Source: Spirochaetia bacterium
Lineage (GTDB): Bacteria; Spirochaetota; Spirochaetia; UBA9216
DNA length: 64,000 nt
Direction of reading: 5' to 3'
NCBI GenBank assembly: GCA_963675665.1
Contig: OY776510.1
Coordinates: 3,712,001 to 3,776,000, forward strand
Under the pieces are notes generated by a model, which saw only the letters and a list, made by a program, of their open reading frames with translations, searched no databases and had not been told where the DNA came from. The translations under genes were made by a program, and so were the position numbers. How positions within the stretch are numbered: the first letter of the stretch is position 1; each line of letters opens with the position of its first letter. Below are positions 12,340 to 64,000 of this stretch, in pieces.

Positions 12340-13145
12340 TGCAGAATAAAAACAGTAAAATTAATTTGAGAAATGGTATTATCGATTCACATTTTCACCT
12401 GTTTCATATGAAAAAACGGGGAATGAATCACCTTGAAATTATTGAACAATGTTTTGATAGCGGGCTTGAATATGCTCTTGATATTGGAATAAACCCCGAG
12501 AATTTTCAGGAAAGAATTAAAACAGCGTTAAAATATCCGGGACTTTACACAGCACATGGTTATTATCCGTCGGAATGTACCAGTAAGGAACTTGATTCCA
12601 GCCTTGCCTATCTTGAGAGCTGCCTTAGCAATGATTCAAAAGCATTGGCTCTCGGAGAAATAGGTTTTGATTTTTTTCATGAATACGGCAATAAAAGTTT
12701 GCAGGAAGCCCTGTTACGCGATCAGCTTAAAATTGCTGACAAACTTGATTTGCCGGTTATTATTCACAGTCGTGATGCTGAAGCAGAGACTCTGCAGATT
12801 CTCGCAAATGAAACTCCTTCCAGGGGCGGTATTATTCACTGTTTTTCCTACTCTGCTGAAACGGCTTTGAAATTTATTGATATGGGCTTTTATATATCTT
12901 TCGCCGGGAATCTGACTTATAAAAAGTCCAAAACTATCCAGCAGGCGGCGGCTTTGATTCCTGTTGACCGCATTCTGCTTGAAACAGATGCCCCTTACCT
13001 GAGTCCGCAAAAAGTACGAGGACTTATGAATCATCCCGGCTATATCGGCTATACCTATGATTGCCTGGCTGAAATAAAAAATATCAACATCGAAGAACTG
13101 ATACCTGTAATAAATAATAACTTTAAAACACTTTTCAGGTTATAA
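12339..13145 (+). CDS. tatD: TatD-family deoxyribonuclease
   Basis: IDSHFH, GEIGFD, IIHSRDA, IIHCFS, LLETDAPYL. Confidence 0.93.
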   Translation: MQNKNSKINLRNGIIDSHFHLFHMKKRGMNHLEIIEQCFDSGLEYALDIGINPENFQERIKTALKYPGLYTAHGYYPSECTSKELDSSLAYLESCLSNDSKALALGEIGFDFFHEYGNKSLQEALLRDQLKIADKLDLPVIIHSRDAEAETLQILANETPSRGGIIHCFSYSAETALKFIDMGFYISFAGNLTYKKSKTIQQAAALIPVDRILLETDAPYLSPQKVRGLMNHPGYIGYTYDCLAEIKNINIEELIPVINNNFKTLFRL

Positions 13146-13221
13146 TCCGGGAACCTCTGATATGATGTGACCCATGTCAAGTTAAAATATCCAGGTTTTA
13201 TCTATAAGATCCCCCCCCTGT

Positions 13222-13420
13222 CCAGGACAGGAAGAAAGATAGAACAACGTTTATGCGGCGATAGACCACTCTGATATTCGCGGATTGGTTACCGCAGGTC
13301 AATGGGATCGTCGGGAGCTGCCTCTGTCTAAAACCGAGGATCAATATTATTATTGCCTCATAGAGGTGCCGAGGGTTCTCCTTTATCACTGTTGTTGTTC
13401 TATCCATCCTTCTGTCCTGG
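13222..13420 (-). ncRNA. Predicted seekRNA/bridge RNA of the IS1111-type element
   Basis: Long closing stem (CCAGGACAG...GATAGAACAAC / GTTGTTCTATC...CTGTCCTGG) encloses two loops carrying target-matching (GGCACCTCTA, TTTTAGA) and donor-matching (CATTG, ATATCAGA) segments. Confidence 0.75.
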
Positions 13421-13444
13421 TAGCTTATTAACCAACTATCGAAG

Positions 13445-14548
13445 TCATGCGACTTCTGTTCTACCTACCATCATTCCCCAAATAAATCCTGATAATTCTC
13501 TGGCAACTGCCGTAACAGTTTTCTGAGGGCATACCCCTCTACGAATCATCCTGAAATATTTCTTACTCAACCTTCTGCCGGCTTTATCAGCATAAGCTAT
13601 TGTTTCAGCAGATTGTCCTTTCCTTCTCGCTGTCAGTCGTTTCGATGGCGAATACCTTTGGTAATGCCAGCTTGATTCCACTAACAGCCGTCGTAGCCTG
13701 GAGTTGTCGGCCTTCGTAATCCCGCCAAGCTTCCGGCCCTCTCCGCTTGAGTATTCTGACGGCACAAGTCCAAGATACGCCATGAAGGATTCCGCTTTTT
13801 TAAATCTTCTGAAATCTCCTATCTCGCATACAAATGTTAATGCTGTTAATGTCTCTATACCTTTGAAACATCGAAGCCGGGATACCCTTTCTTTATATCT
13901 GTCTTCAGCAGCAATCTCTTCTATTTTTTCCTGCAACCGTTCAATCTTTTCCTCTAATTCCACAATCGCAAGATAATATTCTTTTAAAACTTCTTTATGC
14001 ATTACCTGTTCAAACTGCAAGTTTTTCAACCAGGTTCGATGCGCCCCTGTCCAGTACTTTTTCCCAATATCATATTTCTTCCCGTTCCTTAGCAGAAACT
14101 GTAAGAGCCTCTGTTTCTGTTTCCTCAAATCAATTTTCATATCGTTACACATCCTCATGTAATCACGAACTGATTCATCTGTGCGTGTCGGTATATTCAC
14201 CGGTGTTATTTCCTGATTCCTTAATGCTCTGGCTAATTTGACTGCATCCCTCTTGTCTGTCTTTATTCGGTCTCCGGGTTTCCTCGGCAATAATGATGGT
14301 GCTGCTACGTAACAGATAATTCCCATATCTTCAAGTAATCTATAAAGTGTAAATCCTGTAGGGCCTGCTTCGTAACAACACAGAATATTTTCTCCATTCT
14401 CTTTAAGTCGCTTGAAGAATCTTTTAATATTTCCGGGTTCGTTCCTGAGCTCTCTTTCAAACTCAGGATTCTGATAATTATCTCTGAATACCGCTACTGC
14501 GATTGATTCCTTGTGGACATCCATCCCTACATAAATTACACTATTCAT
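13445..14548 (-). CDS. IS110-family DEDD recombinase/transposase
   Basis: YVGMDVHK, YEAGPTG, KTDKRDA, LGLVPSEYSSG; GGAGG RBS before ATG 14548. Confidence 0.95.
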   Translation of the reverse strand: MNSVIYVGMDVHKESIAVAVFRDNYQNPEFERELRNEPGNIKRFFKRLKENGENILCCYEAGPTGFTLYRLLEDMGIICYVAAPSLLPRKPGDRIKTDKRDAVKLARALRNQEITPVNIPTRTDESVRDYMRMCNDMKIDLRKQKQRLLQFLLRNGKKYDIGKKYWTGAHRTWLKNLQFEQVMHKEVLKEYYLAIVELEEKIERLQEKIEEIAAEDRYKERVSRLRCFKGIETLTALTFVCEIGDFRRFKKAESFMAYLGLVPSEYSSGEGRKLGGITKADNSRLRRLLVESSWHYQRYSPSKRLTARRKGQSAETIAYADKAGRRLSKKYFRMIRRGVCPQKTVTAVARELSGFIWGMMVGRTEVA

Positions 14549-14652
14549 AGTGGCCTCCGTTCCTTTGTATGTGGCGTGTCTGCGCTTTGCCATTAGCCAT
14601 TGTGTAGGCTAATCCACGATTTTGCAAACACGGCGGTCACTTCATATTGTCT

Positions 14653-14790
14653 AATAACCCTAAATTGGGCTTATTAGAGGTTCCTTGGAGTTTATTTATT
14701 TCCTTATCAGTCAATAAATAAACATCCAGTACATCTAAGGAAGACTTCGAAAACTAAAGTTTTATAAAACTGCAGTTTTTAGAAGTCCCC
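14653..14790. repeat. Cluster of REP-like palindromes between convergent genes (right half of the IS target REP plus two more)
   Basis: Reconstructed GGAACCTCTAATAACCC-TAAATT-GGGCTTATTAGAGGTTCC; GTTTATTTATT...AATAAATAAAC; GACTTCGAAAACT...AGTTTTTAGAAGTC. Confidence 0.7.
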
Positions 14791-14796
14791 ATCCGT

Positions 14797-16029
14797 TTAT
14801 TCATCAAGTATTACAAGCTCAACCCTTCTGTTTACTGCACGTCCTTCATCTGTTGAATTATCCGCTAATGGTTCATCGCCGCCCCGCCCTTCATAAATAA
14901 AAACCTGCGGCAGCATGCCCAGTGCAGTAAGCTCATTTATTACAGTCAGCGCGCGCTGCTCTGATAAAACATACTGGCTTTCCTTTGTTCCGATATCCGC
15001 AGTATGTCCTATCACAAGAATCTTCTTTACATCAAGGCTGTTCAGAACATCAAAAATTGACTTAATCCTGTTCCTTTCTTCAGGCAGAATTTCAACAGAA
15101 TCAGGAACAAAATGCAAATTCTGAATACTTAGGGCTATACCCTCGGCTTTTTCAATTACTTCAACATCAGTCAGATCGGCAAGTTCCAGGCTCTTTTCCG
15201 TTTTCCCGGCAACGTCAACTCTATCCATTCCGATAATGTCATTATACCAGGTCAGAATAAAGCCGGAATGTTCTCTGACTCTCCCGCTGAAATACAAATA
15301 CTGTTCATCAAGCTGATCACGAATAAATATGGAAGACCTGTCTTCATCATCAATAGTTATAGTAAGCAGATGTTTTCCTGAAATCTGTTTCAAATCCGGA
15401 TCGTTCATACTGGAATCTCCAGGTTTATAACGCATTGCATACTGTGCGGTGATGAAATGCTTTGGCCCTGTTTTTGTCTCTTTCAACCCGTCATAGCGGT
15501 ATTCACAGTAAAATTTTACCCTGGTGTATTTACCGTTGTTGTCCGGATCTACAATCCGCTCTCCGTAATCTTTCCATTTGTCACCCGGAAGTACCTCTTC
15601 AGGAGAAAAGACCGGAAAACTTCGAAGAACAGGGACTACCTGATCCGGCCCGGTACGATAATGTCCCTGATCGTCGATCAGGATTTCACAATATTCATTG
15701 AGATTAACCGGATTAGCAATCAATCTTGTATCCTGTTTTGATGCTTCAAAAACATAGTAATTGCCGGCATACTGTGAATAACCGTCTTCATACCACATAT
15801 ACTGAAGGACCGCTCTTGATTCGTTATAGGTTAAACCTGCATAATTTCCGTTCTCAGTAACCCGTATATTTGAACGTTCAATTATTTTCAGCTTGTTCGA
15901 GCTTCCGAACATAAAGAGAACAGCTTCTTCAGAATATAAGTTCTGAAGCACGATAGAGGATAAGATAATCAACAAAACTGTAAAAAAAAGGTTCCTTCTG
16001 CGAAGGAACCTGAAAATGTATCTATACAT
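14797..16029 (-). CDS. OmpA-family (peptidoglycan-binding C-terminal domain) protein
   Basis: IGHTAD, LSEQRA, GRGGDEPLADN, NRRVEL. Confidence 0.88.
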   Translation of the reverse strand: MYRYIFRFLRRRNLFFTVLLIILSSIVLQNLYSEEAVLFMFGSSNKLKIIERSNIRVTENGNYAGLTYNESRAVLQYMWYEDGYSQYAGNYYVFEASKQDTRLIANPVNLNEYCEILIDDQGHYRTGPDQVVPVLRSFPVFSPEEVLPGDKWKDYGERIVDPDNNGKYTRVKFYCEYRYDGLKETKTGPKHFITAQYAMRYKPGDSSMNDPDLKQISGKHLLTITIDDEDRSSIFIRDQLDEQYLYFSGRVREHSGFILTWYNDIIGMDRVDVAGKTEKSLELADLTDVEVIEKAEGIALSIQNLHFVPDSVEILPEERNRIKSIFDVLNSLDVKKILVIGHTADIGTKESQYVLSEQRALTVINELTALGMLPQVFIYEGRGGDEPLADNSTDEGRAVNRRVELVILDE

Positions 16030-52717: not shown

Positions 52718-52802
52718 CTTTTTATCATTTTGAAGTTTACAAACTTTGTTTGAAAACTTCACTATTCATTACCTGCATCCATGCAGGAATTTCTTATAGG
52801 AG
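52695..52802 (+). mobile_element. 108-bp mini-element with IS110-like ends; three-hairpin element copy C
   Basis: Begins GAATGATAAAAAGTC (identical to the IS left end) after TTAGGAG and ends AATTTCTTATAGGAG (12/15 match to the IS right end). Confidence 0.65.
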
Positions 52803-52827
52803 GAATGATAAAAAGTCTTCATGAGCT

Positions 52828-52980
52828 GGTGAATTGATATACTGCCTTAACTTTAATTGAGGCAGTAAGGTTACTGTTCGACATTTTTACTGGTCCGCGA
52901 GACCGTTTAGGAGATTGAAGAGCCGTAACCGAAACATTCAATGGTCTGCGAGACCGGATAGGAGAATGGAACAATTCACC
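52828..52980 (+). ncRNA. Predicted bridge RNA (IS110 copy 1)
   Basis: Closing stem GGTGAATTG/CAATTCACC, 5' hairpin ACTGCC/GGCAGT, and two homologous loops each capped by GGTC-N-GCGA-GACC and followed by TAGGAG. Confidence 0.8.
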
Positions 52981-53015
52981 GTATAGGCACTGCTTCAAAC
53001 TATTGGAGATAGAAC

Positions 53016-54128
53016 ATGAAGATGAGTATTGGCGTGGATCTTCACAAAACGCAGTTTACAGTATGCCTTTTAAGTGAAGACCGAAAAATTGATCAATTGG
53101 GAATGTATCCGACCAGCGGAAATGGTTATGGAGCATTTCTGAAAATGCTGGATGAATATTGTGAAGAGGAATATGAGTTGAGAGCAGCGGTGGAAACAAC
53201 CGGGAATGCCCGTTATTTCCGCAATAAACTGTTAAAGGCTGGAGTCGAAGTGGTTGTAGTGAATACTTTGAAATTCAAGGTAGTGAATGAATCTGTAAAA
53301 AAGACAGACAAACATGATGCACGCACCCTGGCGGAGTTTCTTGAGAAAGACATGCTGCCTGAATCGATATTATGTTCCCAAGAGAGTGAGGATATTCGAA
53401 GGGTGCTGAAATCCAGGTCGATACTGGTAAAATCTGTTGTGTCGTTAAAGAACCAGGTGCATGGCTTATTACTTGGTTATGGAATAGAGACCAAACGCGG
53501 ACAGCTGCAGAGTAAAAAAGAAAGGCAGCGAATCCTGAACGGTCTCGAGGACCACGACTTTTACGGAAGCGCTGCCAAAACGGTAATACCGTTACTGGAT
53601 ATGATAGATAATCAGGCATCGCAAGTCAAGCAGCTTGAAAAGGTTTTGGCTGAGCTTGTGGAGGACGATGAAGATGTTGAGCTTCTGCAGACAATACCAG
53701 GCGTGGGTCTAATAACAGCAGCAACAGTAAGAGCCTATACAGACGATATCGGCAGATATGATAGTGCGAAGAAATATGCAGCAAACGCCGGGCTTGTGCC
53801 ATGGGTGCAGAACTCAAATATGACAATACATCATGGACATATAACAAAGCGTGGGCCTGTAGAACTGAGGACAGCCTTCGTACAGATGGTGATGGGAATG
53901 GTTCGTATGCAAAAGAAGACCGGGACGTACCGAATAATGACGAAGTATGCAGCGATGAAGAAGCAGAAAGGCTCGGGTAAGAGTGTAATAGCTGCCGCCC
54001 GCAAGATGAGCACTTTGGTATATACAATTTTAAAAACCAGAGAGCCGTTTGATCCGATGAAAATGGCTTTTAGAAAAGAATACAGGGAAATGCAGGCAGC
54101 AGCATGGGAAGCTGTAATGGTCGGTTGA
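53016..54128 (+). CDS. IS110-family DEDD recombinase/transposase
   Basis: IGVDLHK, VETTG, KTDKHDA, IPGVG, AGLVPWVQNS, HITKRG. Confidence 0.96.
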   Translation: MKMSIGVDLHKTQFTVCLLSEDRKIDQLGMYPTSGNGYGAFLKMLDEYCEEEYELRAAVETTGNARYFRNKLLKAGVEVVVVNTLKFKVVNESVKKTDKHDARTLAEFLEKDMLPESILCSQESEDIRRVLKSRSILVKSVVSLKNQVHGLLLGYGIETKRGQLQSKKERQRILNGLEDHDFYGSAAKTVIPLLDMIDNQASQVKQLEKVLAELVEDDEDVELLQTIPGVGLITAATVRAYTDDIGRYDSAKKYAANAGLVPWVQNSNMTIHHGHITKRGPVELRTAFVQMVMGMVRMQKKTGTYRIMTKYAAMKKQKGSGKSVIAAARKMSTLVYTILKTREPFDPMKMAFRKEYREMQAAAWEAVMVG

Positions 54129-54191
54129 TATCCGACTAGATCATAAGCTTATATTTTTAGCTTGTGGTTGACTTTTTATAGGAGAATAAAT

Positions 54192-61852: not shown

Positions 61853-61914
61853 CTTAATCTCCTATAAAAAGTCAACCACAAGCTAAAAATATAAGCTTAT
61901 GATCTGGTCGGATA

Positions 61915-63027
61915 TCAACCGACCATTACAGCTTCCCATGCTGCTGCCTGCATTTCCCTGTATTCTTTTCTAAAAGCCATTTTCATCGGATCAAACGGCT
62001 CTCTGGTTTTTAAAATTGTATATACCAAAGTGCTCATCTTGCGGGCGGCAGCTATTACACTCTTACCCGAGCCTTTCTGCTTCTTCATCGCTGCATACTT
62101 CGTCATTATTCGGTACGTCCCGGTCTTCTTTTGCATACGAACCATTCCCATCACCATCTGTACGAAGGCTGTCCTCAGTTCTACAGGCCCACGCTTTGTT
62201 ATATGTCCATGATGTATTGTCATATTTGAGTTCTGCACCCATGGCACAAGCCCGGCGTTTGCTGCATATTTCTTCGCACTATCATATCTGCCGATATCGT
62301 CTGTATAGGCTCTTACTGTTGCTGCTGTTATTAGACCCACGCCTGGTATTGTCTGCAGAAGCTCAACATCTTCATCGTCCTCCACAAGCTCAGCCAAAAC
62401 CTTTTCAAGCTGCTTGACTTGCGATGCCTGATTATCTATCATATCCAGTAACGGTATTACCGTTTTGGCAGCGCTTCCGTAAAAGTCGTGGTCCTCGAGA
62501 CCGTTCAGGATTCGCTGCCTTTCTTTTTTACTCTGCAGCTGTCCGCGTTTGGTCTCTATTCCATAACCAAGTAATAAGCCATGCACCTGGTTCTTTAACG
62601 ACACAACAGATTTTACCAGTATCGACCTGGATTTCAGCACCCTTCGAATATCCTCACTCTCTTGGGAACATAATATCGATTCAGGCAGCATGTCTTTCTC
62701 AAGAAACTCCGCCAGGGTGCGTGCATCATGTTTGTCTGTCTTTTTTACAGATTCATTCACTACCTTGAATTTCAAAGTATTCACTACAACCACTTCGACT
62801 CCAGCCTTTAACAGTTTATTGCGGAAATAACGGGCATTCCCGGTTGTTTCCACCGCTGCTCTCAACTCATATTCCTCTTCACAATATTCATCCAGCATTT
62901 TCAGAAATGCTCCATAACCATTTCCGCTGGTCGGATACATTCCCAATTGATCAATTTTTCGGTCTTCACTTAAAAGGCATACTGTAAACTGCGTTTTGTG
63001 AAGATCCACGCCAATACTCATCTTCAT
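61915..63027 (-). CDS. IS110-family DEDD recombinase/transposase
   Basis: Protein identical to 53016..54128. Confidence 0.96.
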   Translation of the reverse strand: MKMSIGVDLHKTQFTVCLLSEDRKIDQLGMYPTSGNGYGAFLKMLDEYCEEEYELRAAVETTGNARYFRNKLLKAGVEVVVVNTLKFKVVNESVKKTDKHDARTLAEFLEKDMLPESILCSQESEDIRRVLKSRSILVKSVVSLKNQVHGLLLGYGIETKRGQLQSKKERQRILNGLEDHDFYGSAAKTVIPLLDMIDNQASQVKQLEKVLAELVEDDEDVELLQTIPGVGLITAATVRAYTDDIGRYDSAKKYAANAGLVPWVQNSNMTIHHGHITKRGPVELRTAFVQMVMGMVRMQKKTGTYRIMTKYAAMKKQKGSGKSVIAAARKMSTLVYTILKTREPFDPMKMAFRKEYREMQAAAWEAVMVG

Positions 63028-63062
63028 GTTCTATCTCCAATAGTTTGAAGCAGTGCCTATAC

Positions 63063-63215
63063 GGTGAATTGTTCCATTCTCCTATCCGGTCTCGCAGACC
63101 ATTGAATGTTTCGGTTACGGCTCTTCAATCTCCTAAACGGTCTCGCGGACCAGTAAAAATGTCGAACAGTAACCTTACTGCCTCAATTAAAGTTAAGGCA
63201 GTATATCAATTCACC
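63063..63215 (-). ncRNA. Predicted bridge RNA (IS110 copy 2)
   Basis: Reverse complement of 52828-52980. Confidence 0.8.
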
Positions 63216-64000
63216 AGCTCATGAAGACTTTTTATCATTCCTCCTATAAAATACAGGCGCGAACCGAAGTCTCCTACAAGCCTCGTTTTTTCGGTGTAGC
63301 CCGTTCCGGTGAATTGATGGTAAGGTCTTATTCCAGCGAACATCAGTTCGTCGCCGAAAGCTTCAAATTCCTCTACCTCGTTTTCCAACATATAGTTATT
63401 GCTGATAACAGTGTGAAGAATACCGTCGGCCTTCAGCTTTATCGGGCTGATATGATTTACCAGATTACCGAATGCACGGATATTCACATACTGTCTTCTT
63501 GTTATAACTTTATACATCATATCCGGTTCAAGGCCAACAGTTTTAAGCTGCTCAAAACCTCCGTTTGGTTTCTGCAGAATCTGGTAATAACCGAGAACGG
63601 CATTTTTTTTATCTTTGCTTACAGTAATCCATAACGGCTGGTTATCTGAAAACGGAGATTTTAACCGGTAAAAATCTCCGTACTGAAAGAGGCTGCGCCG
63701 GCTTTTATAGTCGGTTATCTGCTGTTTTATTGTTTTCTTTTCAAAATTGGAAAGTTTCGTCAGATCCAGTTCATAGCCCAGAAGACCGAAAGCTGCAACA
63801 TTGAATCTTGTCTCAAGAGGCGTATTACGCAGTACCTGATGCGAAGGCGCGGCGCTTACGTGCGCCCCCATTACCGACGGCGGGTATACCATTGAAGTAC
63901 CGTACTGAATACTGATTCTTTCAACCGCGTCGGTATTGTCGCTTGTCCAGGTCTGGGGCATATAGTACAGCATTCCGAGATCAAAGCGGTTTCCGCCGCT
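63206..64000 (-). CDS. GH36 alpha-galactosidase, 5'-truncated by the window; C-terminus altered by the IS
   Basis: SGGNRFDLGMLYYMPQTWTSDNTDA, GAHVS, LGYELDL, GDFYRL, GDFGSRL. Confidence 0.92.
   Translation of the reverse strand, partial: SGGNRFDLGMLYYMPQTWTSDNTDAVERISIQYGTSMVYPPSVMGAHVSAAPSHQVLRNTPLETRFNVAAFGLLGYELDLTKLSNFEKKTIKQQITDYKSRRSLFQYGDFYRLKSPFSDNQPLWITVSKDKKNAVLGYYQILQKPNGGFEQLKTVGLEPDMMYKVITRRQYVNIRAFGNLVNHISPIKLKADGILHTVISNNYMLENEVEEFEAFGDELMFAGIRPYHQFTGTGYTEKTRLVGDFGSRLYFIGGMIKSLHELVN

Follow-up and report, generated by a model that had tools for sequence, protein, structure and literature searches.

How a 1494-bp insertion sequence (IS) came to lie in one arm of a short palindrome, and whether an RNA encoded in its own non-coding end directed it there, is the question raised by a locus of a Spirochaetia bacterium (GCA_963675665.1, contig OY776510.1). 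The window analyzed here is a stretch of 64,000 nucleotides (G000:C1:3712001-3776000), in which the element occupies positions 13159-14652 with its transposase gene on the minus strand. A reading of the sequence alone (the original prediction) had described it as an IS1111-type element of the IS110 family that targets a repetitive extragenic palindrome (REP) through guides in its downstream RNA. We consider it highly probable that the element is indeed an IS1111-type member of the IS110 family moving by RNA-guided recombination, on the strength of its anatomy, the insertion of its copies at the same type of site, the fold and covariation of its RNA, and a promoter spanning its joined ends. The RNA would then presumably be produced and bound by the transposase, and the element would probably be active at present.

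The genome holds seven copies of the element (at positions 553746, 2046245, 2621209, 2818569, 3725159, 4981509, and 5030463), which are 99.9-100% identical; six do not differ from one another, and the window copy is one base off. In contigs from four public DNA runs of one study, compared over 12600-15200, the depth of the IS was about seven times that of its flanks. A TCT common to 13156-58 and 14650-52 allows the boundaries to be shifted by up to 3 bases, and a family-wide comparison placed the crossover core at AG in the transposase sense, i.e. CT on the plus strand. This core was present at both junctions of all seven copies, and removal of the element rebuilt the target site with no long target duplication. 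In the window, removal joined GGAACCTCT to AATAACCC.. and restored the near-perfect palindrome anticipated by the original prediction, with one bulged base.

The flanks of all copies read ..ACCTCT on one side and AA(A/T).. on the other, which corresponds to TT(A/T)TT-AG-AGGT(T/G)(C)(C) in the transposase sense. All seven insertions were extragenic, with no insertion point inside an open reading frame (ORF) of at least 100 amino acids. Mapping of the other insertions, which had been proposed as a check, placed every copy at a ..ACCTCT|AA.. site and six of the seven in arms of one REP-like palindrome type; the seventh (genome position 2621209) lies inside a different palindrome and adjoins a copy of another IS110-type element. 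REPs classically number tens to hundreds per genome. Using blastn and a regular expression, we recognized about 13 members of the palindrome family in the genome, six occupied and about seven unoccupied; the predicted palindrome targeting held up, though the label REP is generous: the sequences are extragenic and palindromic but not of high copy number. All seven copies carry the transposase on the minus strand of the assembly, though each palindrome offers a site on either strand; this shared orientation could be due to chance (two-sided p about 0.016). In three of the six occupied palindromes the second arm is the poorer site. Replication direction was rejected as a cause, as three copies lie on one replichore and four on the other (GC skew minimum near 0.8 Mb, maximum near 3.5 Mb).

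The only long ORF of the element encodes the transposase (cf. Table 1), which an in-frame upstream ATG at 14593 would extend to 382 amino acids. The protein matched PF01548 (DEDD_Tnp_IS110, E 2.6e-13) and PF02371 (Transposase_20, E 1.3e-20), and scored 234.4 bits against a cut-off of 140 with the NCBIfam model NF033542 'IS110 family RNA-guided transposase'. It is also homologous to the IS621 transposase structure 8wt6_A across the Ser-Gly region (E 2.1e-9), with YSSG aligned to the YESG of IS621. Residues D10, E60, D98, D101, and S268-G269 were invariant in an alignment of ten sequences and are the probable catalytic residues. The IS1111 motif GL-P----S(T)G is present in the C-terminal domain as GLVPSEYSSG. 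The subterminal inverted repeats (sTIRs) fall within the 7-17 bp typical of IS1111 elements and agree at 11 or more of 14 bases in most relatives, while the non-coding ends show the typical asymmetry of 286 bp downstream of the gene (13159-13444) versus 104 bp upstream (14549-14652). The assignment to the IS1111 type made in the original prediction is borne out by the DEDD transposase, the sTIRs matching at 12 of 13 bases, and the long downstream non-coding region. With 367 amino acids the protein is outside the published IS1111 range of 330-350 (PMC11187229), a range that is descriptive and not mechanistic.

When the minus strand of 13159-13450 is folded, two stem-loop modules are enclosed by a long outer stem (z = -2.1). 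Related elements were taken from the same family and phylum, and 80 loci came from a sample of one genome per species; most of these are titled as Spirochaetota or Clostridia, and the closest has 67% amino acid identity. A consensus fold of ten close relatives was calculated with RNAalifold, and a covariance model was made from the same alignment. The consensus contains P1 (GGAG/CUCC) and P2 (CCUC/GAGG); P3 and a variable hairpin close one internal loop, and UGCGG/CCGCG closes a second. The target-loop module between the P1 strands measures 68 nt. The model matched 75 of 85 loci, each time downstream of the transposase gene and on its strand, and found a single match in the window, at 13256-13381. 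Genome-wide it gave eight matches, all inside the seven copies and one relative, and no solo RNA gene of the ISPpu9 kind was found with it outside these eight elements. Pairing was retained in 92.7% of the cells of the 75-row alignment, compared with 74.1% after shuffling and 31-47% with partners slid, and compensatory changes on both sides were seen in 24 of 26 pairs, counts that are biased towards the model to which the alignment had been fitted. The outer stem has a folding energy of -40.2 kcal/mol (-17.5 +/- 3.2 in shuffles), and a 25-30-bp outer stem of unrelated sequence recurs in 22 of 24 relatives checked; it might be a processing or stabilizing element for an RNA cut from the transposase transcript.

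All coordinates and strings of the original prediction were confirmed in the sequence. Its four guide strings were present on the minus strand (three as listed in Table 1, the fourth being TTTTAGA at 13327-13333), and all lie on strands of the two internal loops, with covariation of target and donor bases across the relatives. In the first loop GGCACCTCTA forms the 5' strand and TTTTAGA the 3' strand. The former matches the site of the copy at genome position 2046245 perfectly, and AGGT at positions 1-4 of the right target flank (RT1-4) and TT at positions -1 and -2 of the left target flank (LT-1 and LT-2) are common to all seven sites. The 9/10 match of the 10-mer by itself was not beyond chance: GGAACCTCTA occurs six times in the window with at most one mismatch, compared with 2.53 +/- 1.74 expected, and 7 of 100 shuffles reached six. 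Since a single such match is unremarkable in 64 kb, the case rests on the same-site copies, on permutation tests within the family, and on column covariation.

For the permutation tests, both flanks were set by conserved ends and sTIRs in 48 elements, which were reduced to 40 non-redundant ones. For the right flank we scored the run of complementarity to the right target flank immediately 5' of a core complement in the non-coding region, and for the left flank the run of identity to the left flank 5' of a core; an anchor-free longest-common-substring comparison of non-coding regions with targets had proved too noisy and was replaced by this core-anchored test. The sum over own targets was 150 for the top-strand guide (permuted 85.6 +/- 6.5, maximum 114) and 133 for the bottom-strand guide (permuted 85.6 +/- 5.6, maximum 111), with none of 20000 permutations as high in either case, figures whose significance is overstated by kinship among the relatives. 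The best top- and bottom-strand runs were usually 31-40 nt apart. In the model alignment of 37 elements, columns 27, 25, 23, 22, and 17 were complementary to RT1-5 in 78, 86, 83, 89, and 54% (about 27% expected), and columns 143, 142, 141, and 138 were identical to LT-1..-4 in 92, 94, 67, and 54%. The exact match of TTTTAGA to the neighboring palindrome arm (about 14777-14790), pointed out in the original prediction, is real, but this arm differs from the guide at RT2 and none of the seven copies lies in an arm of its type.

A relative in the same genome (4456572-4458051, L008/L022), with 68% DNA identity and a stop in the transposase, has an RNA whose donor half departs from that of the studied element at a single position out of 58, while 8 of 10 positions differ in the top-strand guide loop and 4 of 10 in the bottom-strand guide loop. 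The rewritten loops match its own site, ..CCCGT-AG-CTTTTTT.., and the relative is, judging by its sequence, a natural example of modular re-targeting.

The donor guides occupy the second loop. In 35 of 40 elements the homologous position of the loop holds an exact 7-mer made up of the last five right-end bases and the core, and this 7-mer tracks the right-end variants ATATC, ATAAC, ATATA, ATATT, and ATATG; columns 259/260 were identical to left-donor positions LD-2/-1 in 95% and 97% of the 37 elements. On the opposite strand of the loop, CATTG becomes CATTA in eight of ten elements that have the left end ATAAT instead of ACAAT; of the other two, one retains G, giving a G-T wobble, and L094 has CATTACAC. 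Column 191 was complementary to the right-donor position RD2 in 89% (58% expected). The assignment of CATTG, a 4-bp match and the weakest of the four, is supported by these data, through few independent changes.

The bottom-strand guide extends beyond the core by AC, which is replaced by AT where the left end of the element begins with AT, and column 147 was identical to RD2 in 89% (53% expected). The change of AC to AT in L053 is separate from the ATAAC clade, three members of which (L048, L063, and L116) keep AC. We propose tentatively, and with somewhat less than even confidence, that this 2-nt 3' extension of the left-target guide (AG-AC/AG-AT) reads the bottom strand of the donor left end, while CAUUG/CAUUA reads the top strand of the same base, so that the left junction (LT-core-RD) would be read by both loops.

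Joining of the right end to the left end completes a promoter, TTGACA-17-GACAAT, which is complete in this configuration only; TTGACA-17/18-GA(C/T)AAT spans the junction in 36 of 40 relatives. A promoter of this kind, Pjunc, has reportedly been described for ISEc11. The boxes found here are in line with the junction-promoter model published for these families, as outlined in a review (PMC13604230). By analogy with published work on IS110 and IS1111 elements, the cycle might run as follows. The element would excise as a circle with the predicted junction ..CATATC-AG-ACAATATG.., and the promoter created by the joined ends would drive the transposase gene and the downstream non-coding region on one transcript. 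The latter would fold inside the long outer stem into both internal loops. The top strand of the site (T-AG-AGGTKCC) would pair with the 5' strand of the target loop, GGCACCUCU-A, and the bottom strand of the left flank (TTWTT-AG) with the 3' strand of that loop (GGUUUU-AG), while in the donor loop the left end would be read on its top strand (CAAT) by CAUUG, and the right end on its bottom strand by AUAUC-AG. Strand exchange by the DEDD/Ser recombinase would then take place at the AG core common to both partners (CT in the complement), and the circle would be inserted into one arm of a member of the small extragenic palindrome family.

Several observations weigh against RNA-guided movement of this element. 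RT5 matches the guide in one of the seven sites and is mismatched in the other six, and LT-3 is A in three of the seven, where the guide has U. Among the relatives, L076, L067, and L063 missed their own flank with the top-strand guide and L088 with the bottom-strand guide, and both the permutation figures, through kinship, and the pair counts, through the fitted alignment, lean in favor of the proposal. Among the public sequencing runs listed for this organism none was of RNA, a search of 12900-14900 against Rfam 15 at permissive thresholds gave no match to a curated family, and a scan of the minus strand of the integrated copy found no sigma-70-like promoter. Furthermore, G281, located in the ITKAGN motif, is near-invariant (G in nine of nine aligned relatives and in IS621), and the window copy has D at this codon (window 13707), which is G in the other six copies. 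The enzyme of the window copy may be impaired by this substitution, and the other six copies are therefore the better candidates. The same G281D substitution would also suit a fossil or a now inactive element, whose guides are relics and whose seven copies stem from a past burst or from duplication with the host repeat, as would the shared strand of all copies, the longer flanking repeat modules common to two pairs of sites, and the fact that none of the contigs of the four runs showed an empty site or a circle junction over 12600-15200 (contigs drop rare forms). We regard such an origin as unlikely. Six copies are identical over 1494 bp and their ORFs are intact, while the outer flanks of the seven copies are unrelated to each other, and the copies are therefore separate insertions, not segmental duplications. 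In addition, at least three unoccupied palindromes (genome positions 386485, 2935126, and 4993755) are no poorer as matches to the guides than the occupied sites and are still free, as expected with spread in progress. The identity of the copies thus points to an element that is probably active now.

The target might instead be chosen mainly by the protein, or by a hairpin or cruciform structure of the palindrome, with the RNA matches being secondary. A palindromic context was found at seven of seven occupied sites compared with 10 of 38 unoccupied TT-AG-AGGT 8-mers (Fisher p = 0.0004), and a logic of sequence plus structure has been reported in a 2026 preprint for the REP-targeting ISPpu10 (10.64898/2026.03.19.712850). 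Yet the palindromic sites also agree better with the guides at RT6-7 and LT-4..-6, so that the contributions of structure and sequence are confounded, and relatives that have the same scaffold with other loop bases sit at unrelated, often non-palindromic flanks matching their own loops. We therefore hold a choice made mainly by protein or structure to be quite unlikely, and a structural contribution on top of RNA guidance to be possible. It is very improbable, in our view, that the downstream fold, rather than being a guide, forms the 3' end of the transposase mRNA or stabilizes it: although the fold follows the gene immediately on the 3' side, sits within a long stem, and has no promoter of its own, its loop bases covary with flanking host DNA and with the termini of the element, unlike those of a terminator or stability element, and no terminator-like site was called in the scan of the minus strand of the integrated copy. 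RNA guidance thus remains our preferred explanation.

Table 1. Positions in the window of the element, its RNA, and the interrupted palindrome
Feature	Position	Strand	Remarks
Outer half of interrupted palindrome arm	13150-13158	+	Right target flank in transposase sense (AG core then AGGTTCC); core CT 13157-13158
Insertion sequence, 1494 bp	13159-14652	-	7 genome copies; about 7x flank depth in contigs
Right-end subterminal inverted repeat	13160-13172	-	12/13 bases match 14635-14647
TTGACA, -35 box of junction promoter	13175-13180	-	
Outer stem, 3' arm	13221-13255	-	About 27 bp; encloses RNA core
Bridge/seekRNA core, 126 nt	13256-13381	-	Target-binding internal loop, then donor-binding internal loop; covariance model R1, 144.4 bits, E 1.5e-34
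Left-donor guide ATATCAGA	13270-13277	-	3' strand of donor loop; same sense as right end ..ATATC + core AG
Right-donor guide CATTG	13300-13304	-	5' strand of donor loop; complementary to CAAT of left end
Bottom-strand (left-target) guide GGTTTTAG with extension AC	13326-13335	-	AC matches first two left-end bases; LT covariation
Top-strand (right-target) guide GGCACCTCTA	13361-13370	-	Complementary to T-AG-AGGTGCC; RT1-5 covariation
Outer stem, 5' arm	13382-13417	-	
Transposase gene	13445-14548	-	367 aa from MNSVIYVGMDVH start (conserved); PF01548 + PF02371; NF033542; 8wt6_A homology
Left-end subterminal inverted repeat	14635-14647	-	Partner of 13160-13172
GACAAT, -10 box of junction promoter	14646-14651	-	Overlaps core G and left end
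Remainder of palindrome	14653-14684	+	Inner part of cut arm, loop, intact second arm; left target flank ..GGGTTATT in transposase sense

A few further observations concern the surroundings and derivatives of the element. A related palindrome with arms like GGGGACTTCTAAAAAC lies at window 14738-14790, about 60 bp from the target palindrome, and recurs beside other family members; palindromes of this type form a composite intergenic repeat with a TTGGAGTTTATTTATTTCC module, and no IS copy was seen inside it. The core of the target site, the 8-mer ACCTCTAA, was counted 15 times on one strand and 23 times on the other, compared with about 95 per strand expected from base composition alone. Contigs in three of the DNA runs skip 13181-13250 of the element (breakpoints 13180/13251), and one low-depth contig skips 13306-14508 (13305/14509), which would be a transposase-less derivative keeping the ends and part of the RNA; both skips could just as well have arisen in assembly, where repeat copies were joined to each other or to the relative. 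Two loci from Spirochaetales metagenome-assembled genomes (L085 and L086) carry a deletion spanning the entire target-binding loop as well as the 5' strand of the donor loop, with a non-coding end of only 198 bp; the transposase gene is retained, as are both ends.

The second IS110-family element of this genome, present in 15 copies, lies in the window at 52798-54184 on the plus strand and at 61854-63249 on the minus strand. It inserts at TTTTAT-AGGAG, a few bases upstream of ATG starts, i.e. at Shine-Dalgarno sites, and carries TTTTTATAGGAG at its own right end, so that the downstream gene keeps a ribosome-binding site. Its left end has two tandem stem-loop modules around a TGGTC(C/T)GCGAGACCG hairpin and a 10-bp subterminal inverted repeat. 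By eye, the target and donor matches in the strands flanking the modules follow each other as they do in the studied element, which agrees with the common guide order claimed in the original prediction, at the level of visual inspection only. The two transposases share 29% identity over 91 amino acids, and the covariance model of the studied RNA found no match in the second element; orthogonality of the two systems is plausible on these grounds.

The present analysis adds an annotated IS1111-type bridge/seekRNA system from a spirochaete with explicit guide-to-site rules, in which about 4-5 bases on each side of the AG core hold most of the guide signal. With the covariance model the RNA can be found in 75 related loci of Spirochaetota and Clostridia, and the target and donor halves evolve as separate modules. 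With the re-targeted relative and the very different second IS110-type element, the same genome provides a natural setting in which cross-talk between guide RNAs could be examined. In tool building, the six G281 copies are preferable to the window copy.

Targeting of REPs by the IS110-type family is said to be long known, reportedly from Tobes & Pareja 2006 and Choi et al. 2003. The sTIRs are long here, whereas those of the IS110 group measure 2-3 bp. According to Siddiquee et al. 2024 (PMC11187229), the seekRNAs of IS1111 elements are downstream RNAs in which the match to the top strand precedes, on the 5' side, the match to the bottom strand, and Durrant et al. 2024 (PMC11208160) predicted a bridge RNA in the right end of 93.0% of IS1111 elements, with target and donor loops shown for examples. 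The seekRNA elements covered by the former account (ISEc11, ISPa11, ISKpn4, and ISPst6) resemble ours in the DEDD transposase with GL-P----SG, the subterminal repeats, the long downstream non-coding region, and a top-strand complement that lies 5' of the bottom-strand match and overlaps it at the insertion point. The seekRNAs given there come in a short form (82-96 nt) and a long form (148-172 nt), which fit the 68-nt target module and the 126-nt core plus outer stem found here. The element differs from those described there in host phylum (its relatives are titled Spirochaetota and Clostridia), in its longer transposase, and in its target.

With IS621, as presented in PMC11208160 and PMC11208158 and in PDB 8wt6, the element shares a junction promoter, a CT core, a REP-type target, and a homologous recombinase, as well as two internal loops, each reading one DNA partner on both of its strands, whereas the IS621 RNA lies upstream in the left end, and the order of matches published for the IS110 type is reversed. 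The handshake bases of IS621 are located, according to Hiraizumi et al. 2024 (PMC11208158), in extensions of the right-target and right-donor guides, while the donor-matching extension found here is on the left-target (bottom-strand) guide, possibly a new detail. If our tentative reading of this extension is true, the handshake is on the opposite guide and strand from IS621, which would imply either that the strands are exchanged in another order or that recognition of the integrated left junction for excision is built in. In Pseudomonas putida, ISPpu9 and ISPpu10 (PMC12288879; 10.64898/2026.03.19.712850) are likewise multi-copy elements in extragenic palindromes, with a small RNA gene downstream of the transposase in ISPpu9; solo copies of that gene are described there, whereas all eight model matches lie inside elements here and the palindrome family is far smaller. 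In all, the element fits the published biology of bridge RNAs and seekRNAs and leaves the known mechanism unchanged.

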